From Naegleria gruberi (Eukaryota): a stretch of 64,000 nt of DNA. This document shows, piece by piece, positions 26,921 through 61,418 of this stretch; position 1 is the stretch's first letter, and the number at the start of each line of letters is the position of its first letter. The position numbers and the translations under genes were made by a program. Under the pieces are notes generated by a model. That model did not search any database and was not told the origin of the DNA. It saw only the letters and a list, made by a program, of their open reading frames with translations. The stretch is from the NCBI GenBank assembly GCA_000004985.1, contig GG738895.1, one strand, 5' to 3'.

Positions 26921-27832
26921 ATGATTCAATTCTTGGATCCAAATGTTGTGCAATTTGAAATTTTACCTCATCTCGATGATCGATCCGTTATTTCACTCCT
27001 ATCGACATGTAAAATTGTCAATCAGGTAATTTCTATTCCGGACTATATCGAAACAAAATTGAAAATAATGGATGAAGAAATTTTGAGTCAGAAATTCAAT
27101 GAGTTGGAACAAAGTCCAATCCAAGTGAATAGAATTAATGAAATATTTAGATTAGCATATTTGAATTTTAGAGAAGGAATGTTTCAAACTGAAAAGCAAT
27201 TGTTAGGAACAGTTAAAGTGGATGAGGCACAATGTTATGGAAAATTGAAATCTCAATATACTCTTTTGCAGAGATATGTTTTCAAGAATTCCGACAAATT
27301 ATCACCACACTGTAATAGGAGTGTTTTTTCAGGTTCAACAGGATTTTGGAATTCTCATAGTGTTGATTTTAAAATCTCAAAAGAGAATACTGTATATTAT
27401 TGGTCCATTGTCCTTACAGCATTTGATCGTAAGATATCAAATAGCTGGGCAATACTTGTAGGTTTTGCTGAAGAGGATGCTGCCTCATCATTATCTAAAA
27501 GCTGGATTCCATCTGGATATTGTGTCAAATCAAATGCAATACTTGAAAATAGTTATACATCATACACAGAGAGCCTTGTGAATACGGAAGGAGATGTCAT
27601 TGGAATTGAGTGCTATGTCCAAAACAAAACAGTCTATTTCAATGTTTACTCTCCTTCGAGGAACCATCAGACCTTTCAATTCAAATCTGTGAATAGTAAT
27701 ATAGTACCAATGGTATCTATGGTACACTCTCAATCACTCCAATTACTTTCATTACTTCCGTGGGATGGGCATGTGGAAAGCTTGAAATCCTTTGGAGAAT
27801 GTGCAACAAGGATTTGTACAGCAGAAGAATGA
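26921..27832 (+). CDS. F-box / SPRY(B30.2)-domain protein (module gene A)
   Basis: The N-terminal F-box-like motif is VVQFEILPHLDDRSVISLLSTCKIVNQVI. The C-terminal SPRY-like pattern is WSIVL...WAILVGFAEED...GYCVKSN...GDVIGIECYVQNKTVYFNV. About 90% identical to the minus-strand copy at 52502..53413. Confidence 0.7.
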   Translation: MIQFLDPNVVQFEILPHLDDRSVISLLSTCKIVNQVISIPDYIETKLKIMDEEILSQKFNELEQSPIQVNRINEIFRLAYLNFREGMFQTEKQLLGTVKVDEAQCYGKLKSQYTLLQRYVFKNSDKLSPHCNRSVFSGSTGFWNSHSVDFKISKENTVYYWSIVLTAFDRKISNSWAILVGFAEEDAASSLSKSWIPSGYCVKSNAILENSYTSYTESLVNTEGDVIGIECYVQNKTVYFNVYSPSRNHQTFQFKSVNSNIVPMVSMVHSQSLQLLSLLPWDGHVESLKSFGECATRICTAEE

Positions 27833-31800: not shown

Positions 31801-31874
31801 TGCCTCCCTTGGGAATCGAACCCAAGACCTCTGTCTTACTAGGACAGCGCTACTGCCAACTGAGCTAGGAAGGC
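31801..31874 (-). tRNA. tRNA-Thr (anticodon AGU)
   Basis: Hand fold: acceptor GCCTTCC/GGGAGGC with one G-U pair, anticodon stem CTGTC/GACAG, loop CTAGTAA, T arm TTGGG-TTCGATT-CCCAA. No CCA. Short T-run downstream. Confidence 0.85.
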
Positions 31875-33611: not shown

Positions 33612-34388
33612 ATGCAACAAGATCAAGAAGATGCCACAATAGTTTTCCTGCATGATTTCGCTTTCTATAACCAAAATTCTTCCTCGGAATACTTGGTCAA
33701 TCTCTTGAAGAAAAACCTGTCAAGGCCAAGGACAAGATTTAACATGAAAAAAGTTGACAGTTTCCAAGATTTGGAATTGAGAGAAGATTTACTACGAGGA
33801 GTGTATGGATATGGATTAAAACAATTATCAGAAATTCAAACTAAATGTATCATGCCAATAATATCATCCGAACCACCACTAGATGTTGTTTGCATTTCAA
33901 GCTCGGGGACTGGAAAGAAAACTGCATTCTCAATTGCTCTTCTCCAAAGAATAGACTTGGATCATCAAGCGTACTCTAAAGGAGCACCTCAAGCTCTAGT
34001 TATTACACCTACGAGAGAAATGAGTCAAGTCATTTCTAATCACATCAAGAAATTGGCTCATTATTTGGATGTCAAAGTATTACCTTTCCATGGAGGAGTT
34101 TCAACCAAAGAAACAATCCAAGCTCTAAATGAAATTCAACATGTAGTTGTTGGAACAAACAAATTGATGGACTTAATCAGGTTTAAAGTTTTGAATTTGA
34201 AATATTTGAAACTGATAATAATTGACAGAACAGGTTGTGATTGGCTCGACATGTATGATCAACAGATTTTGAGAATTATCAATGCATCAAACAAATTCAA
34301 CCTTCAAATATGTGTCTTTGGCGATTCGAGAAATATAGGATCGATTGAACAATATCTGAAAGATCCAATTTATTGTGAACTGGAGTAG
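33612..34388 (+). CDS. eIF4A-like DEAD-box helicase N-terminal RecA domain only, degenerate motifs (module gene B)
   Basis: Q-motif-like FQDLELREDLLRGVYGYGLKQLSEIQ, interrupted P-loop SGTGKKTAF, motif Ia PTREM, motif II IIDR (in place of DEAD), and FGDSRN in the SAT position. The protein ends before helicase domain 2 (258 aa). About 45% identical to 45766..46560. Confidence 0.65.
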   Translation: MQQDQEDATIVFLHDFAFYNQNSSSEYLVNLLKKNLSRPRTRFNMKKVDSFQDLELREDLLRGVYGYGLKQLSEIQTKCIMPIISSEPPLDVVCISSSGTGKKTAFSIALLQRIDLDHQAYSKGAPQALVITPTREMSQVISNHIKKLAHYLDVKVLPFHGGVSTKETIQALNEIQHVVVGTNKLMDLIRFKVLNLKYLKLIIIDRTGCDWLDMYDQQILRIINASNKFNLQICVFGDSRNIGSIEQYLKDPIYCELE

Positions 34389-34683
34389 AACTCGACAATC
34401 AGAGTATGTTGATTTGTATGCATCATGTCAACTCTGCTGCATATTCATTAAGCAATATTGGACCAAGTCAAGTGATATCTTCTCCAATTTTCAATTCCCT
34501 TGGTGAGTCTCAACTCTTCATTGATATTCAATGATTTTCCTTTTAATGGAAGATTATTTGAAGAGATTAATTACTAGAAATTAATTAGTCTGTTTGGAAA
34601 GTTAAGTTACAAAAATTACAGTAAATCTAGTTATTGGTTAAAGTTCTCAATAACGTATCATAATTAAATACTTTACAAAAAAA

Positions 34684-35775
34684 ATGGGAAACAATCAACA
34701 ACCCACATCCCAACCACCAGTTTTAAAAGATGGCGCTCTTCCGAGTGTTAGTACTCCATCATCAGCATGTTATGAACGCACATTAATGCAAGAATATTTT
34801 CCTAATAATTGTAAATTAATTCGAGTTTGTGATCATGATGAAGAAAATCGAAGGAAACAAGAGGAGAATTTGAAGAATTATCGGGAGAAATACTTGTCTC
34901 GATGTAATGGAATATTGGAGAAGATGTTACCTGAGGAAATTATTGTTGAAATTTTGTATTACTTGCCAATGAAGAGTTTGATCAAATTACAAATGGTTTC
35001 AAAGAATTTTCGCTTGTATTGGACTGAACTTCCTGGATTGTGGGATAAATTTTCAGATTATCCCAAAATGATGTATATTCCAATGGTATACGAAAGTATG
35101 AGAAGTAATTTTGGATATTATAATGAATTTAGACAAAAATTAATTAATTTACATGAAAAGCCAACACGAAATTTTGATTTTACTGGATATCAATACAAAG
35201 CCATCGTTTTGGGAGATAAAAAGTGTGGGAAAACCATTTTGCATAACAGAGTCTTCAAAGGCGAACCATTTTCTCAAGAATATGTCTATACGATCGGAGT
35301 AGATTTTTCTACCACAATTTCCAAACAAAACATATACATTCAATCTTGGGATACAGGTGGAGATGAAAGATTTAGAACAATTAATATCAATTTCTTTAGG
35401 GGTATGAAAGGCCACTTTTACTGCTTTGATTTGAATAATCACGAGTCATTTGAAGTAATGAAGGACATTTTTCAAGATTGGAAGAATGTATATCTCAAAG
35501 GTGAAGACCTTAGTTCATATTTTACTAAGATTTCATTCGCATTGGTGGGATTGAAATCAGATTTGGAACGCAAAGTATCAAGAGATGAAATTCATGAATT
35601 CTTGGAAAATATTGAACCACTGAAGGATAAGACTTTGCACACCAGTAGAGTCCAATACTTTGAGTTGAGTTCTAAAGAAGATTCAATTTCAGATTTACTT
35701 TTTCCATTTGTCTATAGTTATCATAATGTAATGGAAATACCAAGGCAATATTCAACAAGTATAAGTGAAATGTAA
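34684..35775 (+). CDS. N-myristoylated F-box + Rab-like small GTPase fusion (module gene C)
   Basis: MGNNQQ.. has Gly2. F-box LPEEIIVEILYYLPMKSLIKLQMVSKNFRLYW. GTPase motifs: G1 GDKKCGKT, switch I YVYTIGVDF (Rab-type TIGxDF), G3 WDTGGDERF (Gln replaced by Asp), G4 LKSD (in place of NKxD), G5 SSKE. No C-terminal prenylation motif. Confidence 0.7.
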   Translation: MGNNQQPTSQPPVLKDGALPSVSTPSSACYERTLMQEYFPNNCKLIRVCDHDEENRRKQEENLKNYREKYLSRCNGILEKMLPEEIIVEILYYLPMKSLIKLQMVSKNFRLYWTELPGLWDKFSDYPKMMYIPMVYESMRSNFGYYNEFRQKLINLHEKPTRNFDFTGYQYKAIVLGDKKCGKTILHNRVFKGEPFSQEYVYTIGVDFSTTISKQNIYIQSWDTGGDERFRTININFFRGMKGHFYCFDLNNHESFEVMKDIFQDWKNVYLKGEDLSSYFTKISFALVGLKSDLERKVSRDEIHEFLENIEPLKDKTLHTSRVQYFELSSKEDSISDLLFPFVYSYHNVMEIPRQYSTSISEM

Positions 35776-39818: not shown

Positions 39819-39898
39819 GCAGGGGTTCCCGAGTGGTCAAAGGGGTAGACTCAAGTTCTACTGCGCAAGCTTCGTGGGTTCAAATCCCACCTTCTGCA
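39819..39898 (+). tRNA. tRNA-Leu (anticodon CAA), class II, no intron
   Basis: Hand fold: acceptor GCAGGGG/CTTCTGC (2 G-U pairs), 3-bp D stem CCC/GGG with a GAGTGGTCAAA loop, anticodon stem GTAGA/TCTAC, loop CTCAAGT, long variable arm, T arm GTGGG-TTCAAAT-CCCAC, T-run downstream. Confidence 0.85.
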
Positions 39899-45359: not shown

Positions 45360-45430
45360 GCGTCGATGGTTTAGTGGTAGAATACGGCGTTGCCATCGCC
45401 GTGACCCGGGTTCAATTCCCGGTCGACGCA
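45360..45430 (+). tRNA. tRNA-Gly (anticodon GCC)
   Basis: Perfect acceptor GCGTCGA/TCGACGC. Anticodon stem CGGCG/CGCCG with loop TTGCCAT. T arm CCGGG-TTCAATT-CCCGG. 71 nt. Confidence 0.9.
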
Positions 45431-45765: not shown

Positions 45766-46560
45766 TTACAAATCTTCTAATAATATTGGATCTCTCAAAT
45801 GTTTTTGAATGAACAATTTGGTATCTCGATTTCTTGCACATCCAAAAATACAAATCTGAAGATTTAACTTTTTGGCAATTTTCACAATTTCCTCAACATG
45901 AGCTTGAAAACCATAATTTTGTACATGACTCATCTCCTCAACAATTAACATTTTCAAATATTTCACATTCAGAATATTGCTCTCTATCAAATCTAACAAT
46001 TTCACTGGCGTTCCCACAACTACATGTTGAATTTCTTGCAGAGCTAGCTCTGCAGACCGCATTTGACCTCCATATATCCCAAATACTTTGACACTCATAA
46101 ATTTCGCAAAGGATGCTATAATATGAGAGAGACTTATCGCCATTTCCCTGGTCGGTACAATCACCAATGCTTGAGGGGCACCTTTCGAATATAAATCATG
46201 ATTCAGATCAATTCTTTCAAGAAGGGCAAGTGAAAACCCAACTGTTTTACCAGTTCCAATTTTAGATGTGGACACAACATCAACTGGTGGATAGGATGAA
46301 ATAATTGGCATGATCAACTTTTTTTGCAATTCTGTCATTTCTTTTTTACCATCACTATAAAAACCAGAAAGTAAATTCGCGCGTAAATTTAAATCTTCAA
46401 AAGTTTCAATCTTTTTCATGTTGAATTTTGGTCGTGGAATTGTGATTTGTTTTTTGAAAAGTTTGATCAAGTGTGAAAATTCCGAATTTATATTCGAATT
46501 GCTGTGTATGTCTGTTAGAAGGAGGCGTGTAACACTTTCGTATGTTTCTGCTTGGTTCAT
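45766..46560 (-). CDS. eIF4A-like DEAD-box N-terminal RecA domain only, degenerate (module gene B')
   Basis: FEDLNLRANLLSGFYSDG..ELQ (Q-motif-like), intact P-loop GTGKT, PTREM, motif II IVEE (in place of DEAD), FGCARN. Ends before domain 2. Paralog of 33612..34388. Confidence 0.65.
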   Translation of the reverse strand: MNQAETYESVTRLLLTDIHSNSNINSEFSHLIKLFKKQITIPRPKFNMKKIETFEDLNLRANLLSGFYSDGKKEMTELQKKLIMPIISSYPPVDVVSTSKIGTGKTVGFSLALLERIDLNHDLYSKGAPQALVIVPTREMAISLSHIIASFAKFMSVKVFGIYGGQMRSAELALQEIQHVVVGTPVKLLDLIESNILNVKYLKMLIVEEMSHVQNYGFQAHVEEIVKIAKKLNLQICIFGCARNRDTKLFIQKHLRDPILLEDL

Positions 46561-52313: not shown

Positions 52314-52386
52314 TCCCCCTTAGCTCAGTCGGTAGAGCGTCAGACTGTTAATCTGCAGGTCGGTGGTTCGAGCCCACCAGGGGGAG
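52314..52386 (+). tRNA. tRNA-Asn (anticodon GUU)
   Basis: Body TAGCTCAGTCGGTAGAGCGTCAGACTGTTAATCTGCAGGTCGGTGGTTCGAGCCCACC. The acceptor is formed by TCCCCCT/AGGGGGA, i.e. a U1:A72 first pair. TTTTTT terminator follows. Confidence 0.8.
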
Positions 52387-52501: not shown

Positions 52502-53413
52502 TCATTCTTCTGCTGTACAAATCTTTGTTGCACATTCTCCAAAGGATTTCAGGCTTTCCACATGTCCATCCCACGGAAGTAATGAAAGTAATTGGAGTGA
52601 TTGAGAGTCTACCAGAGATACCATTGGTACTATATTACTATTAACATATTCGAATTGAAAAGTCTGATGGTTCCTCGAAGGGGAGTAAACATTGAAATAG
52701 ACTGTTTTGTTTTGGATATAACATTCAATTCCAATGACATCTCCTTCAGTATTCACACTGTGCTCTGAGTATAATTTATAACTACTTGTAACTGTTGCAT
52801 TCGATTTGATACAATAGCCATATAGAATCCATTTATCATATAGTGATGAGACAGCATCCTCTTCAGCAAAACCTACAATTATTGCCCAGCCATTTGATAT
52901 CTTCCAATCATAAGCTGTAAGTACTATGGACCAATAATATATAGTATTCTCTTTTGAGATTTTAAAATCAACACTATGAGAATTCCAAAATCCTGTTGAA
53001 CCTGAAAAAACACTCCTATTACAGTGTGGTGATAATTTGTTAGAATTCTTGAAAACATATCTCTTTAAAAGAGTATATTGAGATTTCAATTTTCCATAAC
53101 ATTGTGCCTCATCCACTTTAACTGTTCCTATCAATTGCTTTTCTGTTTGGAACATTCCTTCTCTAAAATTCAAATATGCTAATCTAAATATTTCATTAAT
53201 TCTATTCACTTGGATTGGACTTTGTTCCAACTCATTGAATTTCTGACTCAAAATTTCTTCATCCATTATTTTCAATTTTGTTTCGATATAGTCCGGAATA
53301 GAAATTACCTGATGGACAATTTTACATGTCGATAGGAGTGAAATAACGGATCGATCATCGAGATGAGGTAAAATTTCAAATTGCACAACATTCGGATCCA
53401 AGAATTGAATCAT
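52502..53413 (-). CDS. F-box / SPRY-domain protein (module gene A')
   Basis: About 90% identical to 26921..27832. The N-terminal 130 aa are nearly identical and the SPRY region is more diverged. The first ATG at 53413 gives MIQFLDPN.. (the track start is TTG). Confidence 0.7.
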   Translation of the reverse strand: MIQFLDPNVVQFEILPHLDDRSVISLLSTCKIVHQVISIPDYIETKLKIMDEEILSQKFNELEQSPIQVNRINEIFRLAYLNFREGMFQTEKQLIGTVKVDEAQCYGKLKSQYTLLKRYVFKNSNKLSPHCNRSVFSGSTGFWNSHSVDFKISKENTIYYWSIVLTAYDWKISNGWAIIVGFAEEDAVSSLYDKWILYGYCIKSNATVTSSYKLYSEHSVNTEGDVIGIECYIQNKTVYFNVYSPSRNHQTFQFEYVNSNIVPMVSLVDSQSLQLLSLLPWDGHVESLKSFGECATKICTAEE

Positions 53414-53581
53414 TTTTTTTTTGAAAATTGTTTTTTCATAGATCAAAGTTCGTTTTTTGTTTTTTACAATGAACAGTTTTTTGTTATAATTTTTAAATAG
53501 TGAATGGAAAAATTACAACAATTTAAGGAGCTAGCCCAAATGTTTACAACATAACACAATAATTTGAAAGTTTTTAAAAAA

Positions 53582-55018
53582 ATGAAAAAAGTTAAAAAAG
53601 TTAAAAAAGTTAAAAAATCGAAAACTGTCAAGTCATTGGCAGTTGAAGATCAAGTGGTCATACAGGCTGGCCTGTTAGCACCGTTATCATCATCGGATGT
53701 TTTGTTTTATCAAATATTACCATGCTTTCCATTAAAATTGTTATTCGAAACAGCAAGATTAGTTTGTAAAGAATGGAATTTATTTATTGTGGGAAATCAT
53801 AATGATGCTGGTCATGTAAAAGAATATTTTACAGGTCGGTACTCTCTGATCATTCCCCGTGAAAAAGAAGAATCTCTGATGACTTGTATTCGTGCTGGAT
53901 ATTTCCGAAATATAATTCAAAAATTACATTTCAAAGCTTTTGATTCATTTTGTAATCCTTCTATTGTTAGAAACTCAGGAGTGATTGAAATGGTTCCACA
54001 AATTAGTTCAACTTTATTGGATGATTCTTTTCCAAATGTTGAGGAAATTATTATTGGAACTGTCAATTCAGATTCTTGTATTATAAGAGAGGGATTTTGT
54101 AAAAACAAACTGGAAAAGTTGAAATTGTTGAAGATGACCATGCAAAGGGACGTGTCAATTTCTGATATATTTTCATGTGATTTTATGCAAAATTTGACAT
54201 GCTTGAATTTGGATAACTGCTTTATTGATTATACAACAGTTTTACAAATTAGTGAATGTCCACTGAAGAACTTGGAGAAATTGTGCTTAGGATATAATTC
54301 AATAACTCAATTGGGAGCTCTTACATTGTCCAAAAGCAAACATCTTTCAAAATTAACATATTTAGATTTGACTTATAATGACATTGGTGATGAAGGGCTT
54401 AGACATCTTTGTGAAAGTGAAACACTGTGTAATATTTCAAATCTATTATTGGAATTTAATGTAATTTCAGAATTGGAGCCTCTTTTACAAAGCTCCAATA
54501 TGAAAAATCTAGCACATTTGAATTTGTATAGATGTAGTTTGAATTTAAAAAGCTTTATGTCATTGATATCTTGCCCTAATTTACCAAAACTTTCAGAAAT
54601 TAGTCTATACCATGCAGGTTTAACAGGAATGCAAGAATTAGAAACTTCTCACATCATAGTATCCAACTCAATCAATCGACTTGATCTATCCTCTTGCAGT
54701 TTAGATGATTTGGGATTTAGGTGTTTGTTAAATTCCCTCAAATACGACTCCATTACTGAACTAAATCTTAGGTACAATGAAATTGGAAATGAAGGATTGT
54801 TGTGCCTAGCTGAATGTCCCTTCCTGACCAATTTGAGGATACTCGACCTATCTGGAAATCCAATAGATGATGAAGGTGCCCTCTACCTGGCACAAAACGT
54901 TCAATTTCCAAATATTAAGGAATTAATTTTAGAGTTTACCAAAATGACCAAAAATGGCAGTGAAAAATTTTCAGAAATTATTTTACAACGATTCCCAAAT
55001 GTTAATTTAACTATTTAA
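53582..55018 (+). CDS. F-box-like + RNI-type leucine-rich-repeat protein
   Basis: Lys-rich N-terminus encoded by an (AAAAAGTT)n repeat. F-box-like ..LFYQILPCFPLKLLFETARLVCKEWNLFIV. C-terminal RNI-like LRRs (..LDLTYNDIGDEGLRHL..; ..LNLRYNEIGNEGLLCL..; ..LDLSGNPIDDEGALYL..). Confidence 0.65.
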   Translation: MKKVKKVKKVKKSKTVKSLAVEDQVVIQAGLLAPLSSSDVLFYQILPCFPLKLLFETARLVCKEWNLFIVGNHNDAGHVKEYFTGRYSLIIPREKEESLMTCIRAGYFRNIIQKLHFKAFDSFCNPSIVRNSGVIEMVPQISSTLLDDSFPNVEEIIIGTVNSDSCIIREGFCKNKLEKLKLLKMTMQRDVSISDIFSCDFMQNLTCLNLDNCFIDYTTVLQISECPLKNLEKLCLGYNSITQLGALTLSKSKHLSKLTYLDLTYNDIGDEGLRHLCESETLCNISNLLLEFNVISELEPLLQSSNMKNLAHLNLYRCSLNLKSFMSLISCPNLPKLSEISLYHAGLTGMQELETSHIIVSNSINRLDLSSCSLDDLGFRCLLNSLKYDSITELNLRYNEIGNEGLLCLAECPFLTNLRILDLSGNPIDDEGALYLAQNVQFPNIKELILEFTKMTKNGSEKFSEIILQRFPNVNLTI

Positions 55019-55099: not shown

Positions 55100-56123
55100 T
55101 CATTTTATTCTTGGTAATATTGTTAAAATTATATTTAAAAAGCCTTCAGTTTCAATATTGTTTGCATTGATATTGAGATCTGTTAACTGAGATAAGTGAC
55201 TCAATGATTTGGCACCTTCAGCACCAATATTATTTGTACTGATATTCAAAGTGGTCAATTTGCCTAGTTGACTGATATACATTGCTCCAGTGTTTCCAAT
55301 TTTAGAATAACTAATATTCAAGTCTGTTAATTGTGACATTTCGGATATAATTTTTGCCCCTTCATCTCCAATATAATTACAACTAATATTCAAATTATTT
55401 AAATTTTCCATTTGACTAATGAACTTGACTCCAACTACAGACAAATTTGGACAATTCGAAACATCAAGCTTTGTTAACTGTTTAATTTCACTAATTTTCT
55501 CTACAGATCTATCATTAAGATCAGAATATCTTACACGAAGTGATTTCAAAGTTTTTGATTGTGAAATAACATTCATCTGAAATGTTTCATCATTTTCTAA
55601 TGAAAATGCTGAATAACTCAAATCGAGTGAAATCAAATTTTTCATTCCAAATACAGAAAAAGATCCTGAATATCCAATACGATTGCTACATATATTCAAA
55701 CTAGTCAAGTTTGCCATTGTACTGATATGTTTAGCTCCTTCATCTCCAATTGAATTATAACTCAGATCAAGATTGGTCAATTGAGTCAAATTTTGAGAAA
55801 TTAATTGAGCTCCTTTCGTCCTAATTCTACAAACACTATTCCCAACAAGTTTCAATTCAACAATATTCCCAATAATTCCAGATTTAACAATATTTTCCAC
55901 AATTTTATCCTCAACCTCCAAATCAACAGAAAGTTTTGCCCTATTTTTGATTACTTCATGCCAATTACGAGAAATTAATAAACAACTTTGTATAATCATT
56001 GAAGAATCCAAAAAGGTAAGAATTTCATAACAAATATCATCAGGAAATACTTGATTTCGAAATTATTATATAAAAAATTACATAATTTTAGCAATTACAC
56101 TCACAATCAGGATTGGATTTCAT
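55100..56123 (-). CDS. F-box + RNI-type LRR protein; 2 exons (about 56105..56123, 55100..56049)
   Basis: The track ORF starts at TTG inside an F-box. An upstream mini-exon ATGAAATCCAATCCTGATT, followed by a GTGAGT donor and a 55-nt intron ending ATCAAG, restores MKSNPDLFPDDICYEILTFLD..LLISRNWHEVI (a complete F-box). The body has 24-aa RNI-type LRRs (LTDLNISYSKIGNTGAMYISQLGK). Confidence 0.65.
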
Positions 56124-57322: not shown

Positions 57323-57395
57323 GCCCGTCTAGCTCAGTCGGTAGAGCGCAAGGCTCTTAACCTTGTGGTCGTGGGTTCGACCCCCACGGTGGGCG
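57323..57395 (+). tRNA. tRNA-Lys (anticodon CUU)
   Basis: Acceptor GCCCGTC/GGTGGGC. D arm GCTC-AGTCGGTAG-AGCG. Anticodon stem CAAGG/CCTTG, loop CTCTTAA. T arm GTGGG-TTCGACC-CCCAC. T-run follows. Confidence 0.9.
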
Positions 57396-57695: not shown

Positions 57696-59141
57696 ATGTT
57701 CTCGAGAACAAGGGTTATTTTCAAAATAATAATAATAATAATAATTAATGAATTGCTAATAGAGAATATTATATTTTCGGATGATGTTTGTTTTGAAATT
57801 ATTTCCATGATTGATGATTCGTGGTTTATTTTGAATAATTGTTCTTTAATTTCAAAACAATGGTTTAATGTGATCAAGGATCGTTCAAAACTTGTTATTC
57901 AATTTAAAAAAAAATTAACAGAAAAAAGAGTTGAATTATTAATGAAAAGTCAATTCATGAACAGTATTGTAAATGTTAAGTTTTCTTTTGGGTTGCTTAA
58001 CTCTTCAGATAAACTTAAATTCATAAGTGAAATGAAACATTTAACATCACTTGATATTGCTGACAATCAAATTGGTGATGAGGGATCTAAATTCATAAGT
58101 GGAATGAAACATTTAACATCACTTAATATAGATCGCAATCAAATTGGTGTAGAAGGAGCCAAACTCATAAGTGGAATGAAATCATTAATATCACTTAGTA
58201 TTGGTGATAATCAAATTGGTGTAGAAGGAGCCAAACTCATAAGTGGAATGAAACATTTAACATCACTTGATATAAATCGCAATCAAATTGGTGTAGAAGG
58301 AGCCAAATCAATAAGTAGAATGAAACAATTAACATCACTTAATATATATTACAATCAAATTGGTGCTGAGGGAGCCAAATCAATAAGTGGAATGAAACAA
58401 TTAACATCACTTGATATTGGTGGAAATCAAATTGGTGTAGAAGAATCCAAATACATAAGTGAAATGAAACAATTAACATCACTTGATATATATAACAATC
58501 AAATTGGTGTAGAAGGAGCCAAATCAATAAGTGGAATGAAACAATTAACATCACTTAATATTGGTTTCAATCGAATTGGTGTAGAAGGATCCAAACTCAT
58601 AAGTGAAATGAAACAATTAACATCACTTAATATTGGTTCCAATGAAATTGGTGTAGAAGGGTCCAAATTCATACCTGAAATGAAACATTTAACATCACTT
58701 AATATATATTACAATGAAATTGGTGATGAAGGATCCAAATACATAAGTGAAATGAAACAATTAACATCACTTGATATATATTACAATGAAATTGGTGTGG
58801 AAGGAGCCAAATACATAAGTGAAATGAAACAATTAACATCACTTGGTATTAGTGATAATCAAATTGGTGTAGAAGGAGCCAAATTCATAAGTGAAATGAA
58901 ATTATTAACATCACTTGATATTGCTGACAATCAAATTGGTGATGAGGGATCTAAATTCATAAGTGAAATGAAATCATTAACATCGCTTAATGTTAATTCC
59001 AATCAAATTGGTGATGAGGGAGCCAAACTTATAAGTGGAATGAAACAATTAACATCACTTAAAATATATTACAATCAAATTGGTGAAACTTTATTAATGT
59101 CTGTTATATCAATAACAGCTGAGACCAAATCTTTAGACTAA
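57696..59141 (+). CDS. F-box-like + RNI-type LRR protein built from about 15 near-identical 24-aa repeats
   Basis: The N-terminal F-box-like motif is IFSDDVCFEIISMIDDSWFILNNCSLISKQWFNVI. It is preceded by a poly-Ile stretch encoded by an (ATA)6 microsatellite. The body is MKHLTSLDIADNQIGDEGSKFISG repeated with few changes. Confidence 0.7.
   Translation: MFSRTRVIFKIIIIIIINELLIENIIFSDDVCFEIISMIDDSWFILNNCSLISKQWFNVIKDRSKLVIQFKKKLTEKRVELLMKSQFMNSIVNVKFSFGLLNSSDKLKFISEMKHLTSLDIADNQIGDEGSKFISGMKHLTSLNIDRNQIGVEGAKLISGMKSLISLSIGDNQIGVEGAKLISGMKHLTSLDINRNQIGVEGAKSISRMKQLTSLNIYYNQIGAEGAKSISGMKQLTSLDIGGNQIGVEESKYISEMKQLTSLDIYNNQIGVEGAKSISGMKQLTSLNIGFNRIGVEGSKLISEMKQLTSLNIGSNEIGVEGSKFIPEMKHLTSLNIYYNEIGDEGSKYISEMKQLTSLDIYYNEIGVEGAKYISEMKQLTSLGISDNQIGVEGAKFISEMKLLTSLDIADNQIGDEGSKFISEMKSLTSLNVNSNQIGDEGAKLISGMKQLTSLKIYYNQIGETLLMSVISITAETKSLD
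58020..59090 (+). repeat. 72-bp tandem repeat array (about 15 copies) encoding the LRR units of the 57696..59141 gene
   Basis: Direct reading shows a reiterated unit AAACAATTAACATCACTTGATAT..AATCAAATTGGTGTAGAAGGAGCCAAA..ATAAGTGGAATG with greater than 85% nucleotide identity between neighbours. Confidence 0.8.
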
Positions 59142-60320: not shown

Positions 60321-61418
60321 TTATAGCATGGTTTTTAGAGTGGCAACAGCATAGAGGAATGGAAAGAGAAGGTCATCATCAGAGCACTCTTCTTTGGAGC
60401 TTAATTCAAAATATTGAACTTTGGTTGTGTGAATTGTTTTTTGTTGAGGCTCTGGCTCGACCATTTTTAGAAAATTGTAAATTTCAAGTCTTGTTACTTG
60501 ATGATCGAGATCTGATTTCAATCCGAGTAAGAGGAAACATCTATCATTGATATTGTAATCTGAAATATCTTTGACTGTCATTTCGTGATAAATTTCAATC
60601 ATTTCCTCAAATGATTTATGACTATTCAAATCAAAACAATACACAAAAACATTAGCTCTCGAATAAACAGATTTGAATAGCGATAGATATGTTTGATTTC
60701 CACATGTATCCCAAATCTTGAATGCAAATTCCGTCCCACTTCCATAAAGGTAATGCTTGTCAATTACTGGGAAAGTTATTGAGGGTGTATAATTTTCCGA
60801 AAATGGTAATTGATTAAAAGCTCTATCAATCAAAGTGGATTTACCACACCCTGATGACCCAACAAATATGTATTGGGCACATTGAGGCAATTCAACATCC
60901 TCATCTATTACAAATCTCTTCAGCAAGACATTTTTAACATTTTCATAACTTTCCATATCAGAAAACATGTACAACATTGGACTTTTTCTCCTCAAATCCT
61001 TCCACAGAACTTCAAATCTGGTCCAATACATTAAAAATCTCTTTGAAACTCGTTGCATTCTCCCTATACTTTCCATATCCAAAAATTGTAAAATGTGTAA
61101 AATTATTTCATGAGGAAAATTCGTCAACCAACCATCCTTCTCCTCACCCTGATTGAAATACTCATCATTGCCTCCATATCCTCTCCTAATTCCATTAAAA
61201 ATTCCTATCGGAAGCAATTCTACATCCGAAACAATAGTAGAAAGAATAGATTTCCTCTTGAATCCTCTTGGTAATTCCAACACGGGAAAATGTAGGGATT
61301 TTCCTGTAGAATAAAGTAAATTTTCAGATTGTTCACGGGAGGGGATTTTATTTTCATCTCTTGCTTGGTGATTCAGAGATGATGATGAGGGCGTCTCTGT
61401 TGATGTTTGTTGTCCCAT
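60321..61418 (-). CDS. N-myristoylated F-box + Rab-like small GTPase fusion (module gene C')
   Basis: MGQQTS.. has Gly2. F-box FPHEIILHILQFLDMESIGRMQRVSKRFLMYW. G1 GSSGCGKST, G3 WDTCGNQTY, G4 LKSD, G5 SSKE. About 35% identical to 34684..35775 with the same domain order. Confidence 0.7.
   Translation of the reverse strand: MGQQTSTETPSSSSLNHQARDENKIPSREQSENLLYSTGKSLHFPVLELPRGFKRKSILSTIVSDVELLPIGIFNGIRRGYGGNDEYFNQGEEKDGWLTNFPHEIILHILQFLDMESIGRMQRVSKRFLMYWTRFEVLWKDLRRKSPMLYMFSDMESYENVKNVLLKRFVIDEDVELPQCAQYIFVGSSGCGKSTLIDRAFNQLPFSENYTPSITFPVIDKHYLYGSGTEFAFKIWDTCGNQTYLSLFKSVYSRANVFVYCFDLNSHKSFEEMIEIYHEMTVKDISDYNINDRCFLLLGLKSDLDHQVTRLEIYNFLKMVEPEPQQKTIHTTKVQYFELSSKEECSDDDLLFPFLYAVATLKTML

Follow-up and report, generated by a model that had tools for sequence, protein, structure and literature searches.

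The 64,000-nucleotide (nt) stretch of Naegleria gruberi contig GG738895.1 analysed here (the window) is gene-dense, with 31-38% G+C and mostly uninterrupted open reading frames (ORFs), and holds two inverted genes, B and B', that are separated by 11.4 kb and encode stand-alone versions of the N-terminal RecA domain (domain 1, RecA1) of the helicase eIF4A. Both lie on one 333,733-bp scaffold, and we are highly confident that they are genuine derivatives of eIF4A that consist of domain 1 only and have been kept by selection. The two genes, with the N-terminal segments that the public gene models omit, are:

33612-34388, plus strand: B, complete ORF of 258 amino acids (aa) plus stop, a stand-alone eIF4A-like RecA domain 1
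45766-46560, minus strand: B', complete ORF of 264 aa plus stop, paralogue of B
33612-33743, plus strand: N-terminal extension of B, residues 1-44, absent from the public model and probably coding
46420-46560, minus strand: N-terminal extension of B', absent from the public model

The public model of B (NAEGRDRAFT_72139, EFC40005; 214 aa) begins at M45 and is 100% identical to B from that residue onward, and that of B' (NAEGRDRAFT_72146, EFC40071; 217 aa) begins at M48. These models begin at internal methionines, and an exact-sequence look-up of the full B and B' ORFs returned no record; the same look-up with a third N. gruberi paralogue (P0011, below) was also empty. Proteins of the family are labelled only 'predicted protein' or, automatically, 'ATP-dependent RNA helicase'. 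The first ATG is probably the true start of both genes, giving N-termini 44-47 residues longer than the public models, since the 44-47 codons before the public start contain no stop in any of the three N. gruberi paralogues or in a second strain (probability of 44 open codons, 0.034 per copy), positions of the B extension are conserved (N20, N22, S23, L28, K33, K34, P39, R40, F43 and N44), the ratio of non-synonymous to synonymous substitution rates (dN/dS) in the extension, 0.36, matches that of the core, an A-rich AAAAAAATG context that occurs at the neighbouring gene too precedes the first ATG, and independent gene calls on metagenome contigs gave lengths of 264 and 270 aa. Within the extension, RTRFNMKKV aligns with the homologous KARYEQKEV of the eIF4A N-terminal tail.

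B and B' are eIF4A-type DEAD-box domain 1 and not another P-loop family, an assignment based on hidden Markov model (HMM) and fold matches. The only Pfam family found was PF00270 (DEAD), at 72 and 81 bits for the two proteins against a cutoff of 26; Helicase_C (PF00271) stayed below the Pfam threshold in both, and CMS1 (PF14617, a 90S pre-ribosome subunit) reached 15.6 and 17.3 bits against a gathering score of 35 and overlapped the far stronger DEAD match. Across all PDB sequences, the closest solved relatives were the DEAD domains of eIF4A-I (E = 4e-29, B residues 47-253), followed by eIF4A-III (~1e-24) and then DDX39B (~1e-19), and eIF4A-I is the best sequence match at 33-36% identity. An AlphaFold2 model of B has a mean predicted local distance difference test score of 79.7, with most of the core above 80 and only residues 1-45 poorly predicted, and has the same fold as the RecA1/DEAD domain of eIF4A-I (PDB 2G9N, 1QDE/1QVA), superposing on human domain 1 (2g9n) with a template modelling (TM) score of 0.88 and a root-mean-square deviation of 2.2 Å. 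The two proteins are 49% identical over 241 aa (E = 9e-80), close to the ~45% estimated by an earlier note that had recognised an eIF4A-derived paralogous pair from the letters of the sequence. Their motifs and neighbouring segments are:

33762-33839, plus strand: Q-motif region of B, F51 ... GLKQLSEIQ76, retained (canonical GFxxPSxIQ)
33867-33878, plus strand: SEPP segment of B, a 3-residue insertion before motif I
33897-33920, plus strand: motif I of B, SSSGTGKK (canonical AQSGTGKT), GKT broken to GKK
46243-46266, minus strand: motif I of B', SKIGTGKT, GKT retained
34008-34025, plus strand: motif Ia of B, PTREMS, retained (canonical PTRELA)
34224-34235, plus strand: motif II equivalent of B, DRTG (from D205), in place of DEAD
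45928-45939, minus strand: motif II equivalent of B', EEMS (from E208), in place of DEAD
34320-34328, plus strand: motif III equivalent of B, GDS, in place of SAT
45835-45843, minus strand: motif III equivalent of B', GCA, in place of SAT

Alignments with full-length eIF4As, from which the motif registers were taken, bear out the eIF4A-like N-terminal layout that had been proposed, with the Q motif and the PTRE of motif Ia retained in both proteins (in B' as F54, GKKEMTELQ79 and as PTREMA) and the GG doublet also kept, while motif Ib, canonically TPGR, is degenerate (T-NK in B, TPVK in B'). The loss of DEAD and SAT had been correctly noticed, but the tetrads then read as IIDR and IVEE lie one to two residues out of register, as do the FGD and FGC read at motif III; the aligned states are DRTG and GDS in B and EEMS and GCA in B'. 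The P-loop of B is broken, and what was first read as an inserted Lys aligns, with no gap, as a Thr>Lys change (GKT>GKK). The Lys may alternatively reflect an insertion with a compensating deletion, and, whichever way it arose, B alone of the two proteins departs from the canonical GK[ST]. Catalytic degeneracy holds for motifs II and III, but the proteins are not uniformly 'dead', with GKT and an acidic E-E kept in B' and D-E kept in the third paralogue. Full-length eIF4A carries the SEPP insertion too, as SEPP or SYPP, in N. gruberi, Willaertia magna and Acrasis kona, and lacks it in the animals, fungi and stramenopiles of the alignments, and it follows from this shared insertion that B and B' descend from a heterolobosean eIF4A-I. 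With eIF4A-I the pair has in common the Q motif, PTRE, GG, this insertion and homology in the N-terminal tail, whereas it differs in having no RecA2 (motifs IV-VI), in the degenerate motifs II, III and TPGR, in the GKK of B, in an N-terminal extension ~20 residues longer and in a 3-5 residue insertion ('YSKGAP') before motif Ia that occurs only in truncated Naegleria copies.

The ends of the two genes, and what follows them, are:

34359-34388, plus strand: C-terminus of B, KDPIYCELE plus stop, the last strand of RecA domain 1; eIF4A goes on RDPIRILVKKEELTLEG into domain 2
45769-45795, minus strand: C-terminus of B', RDPILLEDL, with the stop at 45766-45768, the same domain boundary as B
34389-34683, no strand: 295-nt spacer from the B stop to the next gene, with no helicase domain-2 coding potential
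45360-45430, plus strand: gene for tRNA-Gly(GCC), ~340 nt past the B' stop in the downstream spacer, bounding B'

Both proteins end five residues past the D-P-I motif that closes RecA domain 1, a length that just covers the last beta-strand of the domain. When six full-length eIF4As were used as tblastn queries, B and B' were matched only over query residues ~20-235 and nothing else in the 64 kb fell below an E of about 0.8. A search of all stop-to-stop fragments of the window, in six frames and with --max, by an HMM built from the C-terminal domains of 30 eIF4As gave a best E of 1.6 and found no domain-2 exon between the B' stop and tRNA-Gly, past which lies the 3' end of an S49 peptidase gene. 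Both genes do, as had been claimed, stop before helicase domain 2, and coding sequence for motifs IV-VI, which might have lain in unannotated downstream exons, is absent within 1 kb and within the whole 64 kb. No intron interrupts the parental eIF4A gene (1224 nt) in N. gruberi or W. magna, and an eIF4A intron/exon boundary as the point of truncation was rejected for that reason.

An exhaustive HMMER search with a B/B' profile against 1.84 billion representative proteins returned, above the eIF4A background (~100-135 bits for single domains), only the cluster of B and a third truncated N. gruberi paralogue (P0011, NAEGRDRAFT_72190), located on the same scaffold outside the window. Its motifs read GTSKT, STRELA, TPGT, DEFE and SQD, with Q>H in the Q motif, it ends ...RNPVKIF*, and a 270-aa variant is present in the metagenome strain described below. 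Truncated proteins of W. magna, from the sister genus, at two loci (the alleles KAL9649299/KAL9657223, and KAL9656172) were reached through the next best single-domain match of domain-1-only length (P0025, 133 bits) and a profile search of 90%-identity clusters. P0025 and P0161 (JBEGDK010000096 and JBEGDK010000021) sit in collinear 12.7-kb regions that are ~97-99% identical and have the same neighbours, and are most likely haplotigs or alleles of one locus and not separate loci. The Willaertia copies are un-named hypothetical proteins that resemble B and B' in consisting of domain 1 only, in ending at the same boundary, with no domain 2 nearby by tblastn or the domain-2 HMM, in the loss of motifs II (DQLD) and III (SLQ/GLN) and in a similar dN/dS; unlike B and B', they have no long N-terminal extension, and their P-loop GKT is intact. 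All five proteins end 3-8 residues after a D/N-P-I/V motif and have lost canonical motifs II and III, while the fold core, the G-T-x-K of the P-loop, the T-R-E of motif Ia and GG are conserved; G99, T100, K102, T134, R135, E136, G161 and G162 are invariant in the five sequences from the two genera. Metagenome scans for further relatives of B recovered only one contig-end eIF4A-like fragment, at 31% identity.

A chance origin of the B frame is excluded by the probability of an open 258-codon frame, ~3e-9 per start at a stop frequency of 7.4% per random codon. In a neutral simulation that took B to 20% nucleotide divergence, half the B-B' distance, 0.02% of 5000 replicates stayed open, even before indels are taken into account. 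Between B and B', four of four indels are in frame, identity at codon positions 1, 2 and 3 is 60, 74 and 47%, the coding pattern 2>1>3, and dN/dS is 0.33, with dS near saturation. From the metagenome assembly ENA ERZ929261 comes a second N. gruberi-like strain, with 98.3% identity across 4.4 kb; its B' is intact, with six non-synonymous and four synonymous changes (dN/dS 0.40), and the B' coding sequence has diverged by 1.26% between the strains, whereas the spacer next to it has diverged by 4.8% and has two indels (Fisher p = 1.5e-4). A comparison of the two truncated loci of Willaertia, where dS is unsaturated, gives a dN of 0.21, a dS of 0.58 and a dN/dS of 0.36; the N. gruberi-W. magna comparison of eIF4A itself is unusable as a benchmark, its dS being saturated. 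The ORFs are intact in five copies and two strains and do not classify as pseudogenes. Taken together, these results show a purifying selection on the proteins that is real but relaxed, and the earlier suggestion of function rather than decay stands on the neutral simulation, on dN/dS values of 0.33-0.40 and on a coding sequence more conserved than its spacer.

The truncated copies of Naegleria and Willaertia are 31-33% identical to each other, compared with 85% for domain 1 of their eIF4As, an amino-acid evolution several-fold faster than that of eIF4A-I. Identity to the eIF4A of the same genus is 46-51% for the Willaertia copies and 35-39% for B, B' and the third paralogue. A neighbour-joining tree (300 bootstraps) placed the truncated copies of both genera, with a metagenome sequence (P0100), in a clade with only 34% support, which is uninformative and likely affected by long-branch attraction. 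Because the tree could not settle between single and multiple origins, the copies were compared site by site at the 38 aligned columns that differ between the eIF4As of the two genera. The Willaertia copies carry the Willaertia state at 14 of these columns, including derived states, as polarised with Acrasis, at columns 145, 221 and 243, and the Naegleria state at four, while the N. gruberi copies lean to the Naegleria state (5-10 versus 2-4). Judged by these site patterns, the Willaertia copies probably arose from Willaertia eIF4A after the genera split, and the truncated architecture with degenerate motifs II and III would have evolved at least twice. The alternative is an ancient single origin followed by gene conversion or homogenisation; a nucleotide scan for conversion between the truncated copies and eIF4A detected no long high-identity tract, the best being 79% over 155 nt (Willaertia) and 91% over 32 nt (B versus the third paralogue).

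Truncated eIF4A-like reading frames were also seen in other eukaryotes. Unrelated environmental eukaryote contigs carry DEAD-only ORFs on the same strand as, and directly upstream of, a full-length eIF4A-like gene, with coordinates from prokaryote-style gene calls:

Contigs L008/L009, 5001-5681 and 6499-7677, same strand
Contig L010, 503-1138, 1183-2166 and 2327-3487, same strand

Models from the trematode Calicophoron daubneyi (P0010 and its cluster mates, such as CAL8078821) contain four degenerate domain-1 repeats followed by one domain 2, and may be fused models of tandem truncated copies; another protein (P0013) has seven matched stretches. The environmental and trematode gene models hint that 5'-partial duplication of eIF4A could be common.

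Other features of the window, of which the first directly follows B, are:

34684-35775, plus strand: F-box plus Ras GTPase gene, the next gene after B, starting 296 nt past the B stop
60321-61418, minus strand: paralogue of the F-box/Ras gene, 36% identical, 14 kb from B'
26921-27832, plus strand, and 52502-53413, minus strand: inverted 303-aa ORFs, 90% identical, with a weak SPRY match, flanking the B...B' region
53564-55018, plus strand; 55100-56011, minus strand; and 57696-59141, plus strand: ORFs interrelated by internal repeats, with offset BLAST alignments at 27-44% identity
11303-11375, 31801-31874, 39819-39898, 45360-45430, 52314-52386 and 57323-57395: six dispersed, intergenic tRNA genes, for Ala, Thr, Leu, Gly, Asn and Lys, respectively

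Upstream of B, an ORF of 500-544 aa without a Pfam match, its C-terminal third bearing hydrophobic stretches, ends 31 nt before the ATG, and the tRNA-Thr gene lies ~70 nt upstream of this ORF. B' is flanked by a 193-aa ORF on one side and by the genes for tRNA-Gly and an S49 peptidase on the other, an unrelated gene of 827 aa precedes the third paralogue, and the neighbours of the Willaertia truncated loci are different again. The three-gene module with B at its centre that the earlier note had envisaged as conserved is contradicted by these differing neighbours, and the F-box/Ras gene is alone in having a paralogue elsewhere in the window. Both F-box/Ras proteins join an N-terminal F-box to a C-terminal Ras/Rab-type GTPase, an unusual fusion, and the first begins MGNN..., a possible myristoylation signal. 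The duplication of the 303-aa SPRY-like ORFs is much younger than that of B and B', and the inverted SPRY-like, B/B' and F-box/Ras pairs suggest repeated inverted segmental duplication in the region. The ORFs between 53564 and 59141 are a local cluster of repeat-protein genes.

B and B' are probably non-enzymatic binding proteins. Hydrolysis of ATP by DEAD-box proteins needs the motif VI arginines and motif V of RecA2, domain 2 carrying motifs IV-VI with the arginine fingers, and RNA is gripped only between two closed RecA domains, with ATP. With domain 2 absent and motifs II and III degenerate, ATPase, helicase and RNA-clamp activities are not expected from what is generally known of DEAD-box proteins, and once domain 2 was lost, motifs II and III would be expected to decay. 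An RNA clamp, a role suggested in the earlier note, is unlikely and was rejected on the same structural grounds. Residual nucleotide or phosphate binding, or backbone contact, is possible at least in B', because G-T-x-K, T-R-E and GG are conserved in all five proteins. In the explanation favoured here, the intronless heterolobosean eIF4A-I gene would have been duplicated with the loss of everything past domain 1, leaving three genes on one N. gruberi scaffold for a free-standing eIF4A N-terminal RecA domain, and the proteins have been kept folded under moderate purifying selection and would act non-catalytically. As binding modules that mimic the N-terminal domain of eIF4A, they may compete with eIF4A for its ligands, candidates for which are MA3/PDCD4-type proteins, MIF4G/eIF4G-type proteins (through a secondary MIF4G contact) and the domain at the C-terminus of eIF4A itself, and such competition would tune eIF4F activity. 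Taken as a whole, with identity, origin, inactivity and competitor mechanism together, this explanation is tentative and falls somewhat short of an even chance; the competitor mechanism by itself is possible but rather doubtful.

Several observations weigh against selected eIF4A competitors. eIF4G contacts eIF4A mainly on domain 2 (PDB 2VSO), so an eIF4G decoy would be weak, and conservation falls mostly on the fold core and the motifs and demonstrates no partner-specific surface. The constraint is weak, with a dN/dS of 0.40 in B' compared with 0.04 in the adjacent S49 peptidase gene, the 6:4 count of strain differences alone is not significantly below neutral, and the strains differ in the RNA-binding GG doublet of B' (G165A, the second Gly). 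The evidence for B and B' is at the DNA level, the additional contigs coming from a DNA metagenome. No truncated orthologue was seen in the searched proteomes of N. fowleri and N. lovaniensis, whose eIF4As cluster with that of N. gruberi, in a search to which un-annotated genes are invisible and whose word-indexed form missed the third paralogue, and the family may therefore, tentatively, be dispensable in close relatives, pathogenic Naegleria among them.

A broader view, which we consider unlikely, is that stand-alone dead eIF4A N-terminal domains form a recurrently invented, fast-evolving class of regulators or decoys, arising independently in each amoeba lineage. The class would embrace Naegleria, Willaertia and possibly other protists and flukes with tandem truncated copies beside eIF4A, and its members would titrate molecules aimed at the eIF4A N-terminal domain, whether endogenous repressors acting in amoeba-flagellate or cyst transitions or effectors from pathogens, giant viruses or natural products. 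Lineage-specific copy number and elevated dN/dS would then be explained.

Slightly less likely still is a split enzyme, in which a partner in trans, either a separate RecA2 or full-length eIF4A contributing its C-terminal domain, would join domain 1 in a nucleotide-dependent RNA-binding or ATPase unit. The intact GTGKT and the acidic E-E of B', the D-E (DEFE) of the third paralogue, the Q motif, PTRE and GG retained in most copies and the eight residues invariant across five sequences are what such an enzyme would keep, but a stand-alone domain 2 is absent from the 64-kb window and from the surroundings of every homologue, GKK and DRTG are the states found in B, the DQLD of Willaertia is the classic non-hydrolysing E>Q state, and no copy has kept motif III, through which ATP hydrolysis is coupled to RNA binding.

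That the genes are relics, partial eIF4A duplicates that are still open by luck and are drifting to pseudogenes, is improbable. Each copy has lost the catalytic motifs differently, and the dN/dS ten-fold above that of a neighbouring housekeeping gene, the polymorphic GG, the orthologues not detected in N. fowleri or N. lovaniensis and the DNA-level nature of the evidence would all fit decay. Against this, B, B', the third paralogue and the two Willaertia loci are intact after 50-70% amino-acid divergence, when the neutral probability of an open frame is 2e-4 per copy before indels are counted; all B/B' indels are in frame; codon-position identity follows 2>1>3 with dN/dS (0.33-0.40) below 1; between strains the spacer has diverged four times as much as the coding sequence; and the full domain-1 fold is preserved, last strand included. 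An annotation or assembly artefact, with domain 2 of a full-length helicase in an unrecognised exon or lost by mis-assembly, might be entertained given ~0.7 introns per gene in N. gruberi (PMC5862402) and public models of B and B' that are already imperfect, their N-termini probably too short, but is effectively refuted by the lack of any domain-2 signal in any frame of the 64 kb by tblastn or sensitive HMM, by downstream space occupied by an independent F-box/Ras gene (B) and a tRNA gene (B'), by the identical stop that both B' and the third paralogue have in another strain, assembled independently from a metagenome, by the same boundary at two Willaertia loci and by the intronless parental gene.

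Selected, probably non-catalytic domain-1 derivatives of eIF4A can be set beside two known kinds of inactive helicase. eIF4A, the archetype of DEAD-box helicases, is a major translation control point and drug target, and dominant-negative mutants of it such as DQAD, attributed to Pause and Sonenberg, reportedly inhibit translation because the dead variants occupy partner sites. D-Q is the natural state of motif II in the Willaertia copies, but the dominant-negative proteins, being full-length, use domain 2 to enter eIF4F, an interface that a domain-1-only protein does not have. Utp25/Def is known as an ancient ribosome-assembly factor, conserved universally, that retains a helicase-like core of two domains, whereas B and B' are young, lineage-restricted, eIF4A-derived and have a single RecA domain. 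Its likeness to the pair lies in the lost catalytic motifs and the proposed non-enzymatic binding role, Utp25/Def being described as a DEAD-box-derived pseudohelicase thought to be a non-enzymatic binding component (PMC9539457). Searches of the literature library with locus tags, accessions and terms for pseudohelicases and truncated eIF4A paralogues found no publication on these genes or an equivalent family. Pseudo-helicases and dominant-negative eIF4A mutants were already known, but to our knowledge no naturally occurring single-domain eIF4A derivative kept by selection is on record.

If unexpressed, B and B' would merely be a curiosity of gene-family turnover in Naegleria. If instead they are expressed and bind eIF4A partners, they would constitute a simple, genetically encoded modulator of eIF4F and a natural experiment on which functions RecA1 alone holds, and their independent appearance in sister genera, if true, would mean that the eIF4A gene is prone to yielding such regulators.

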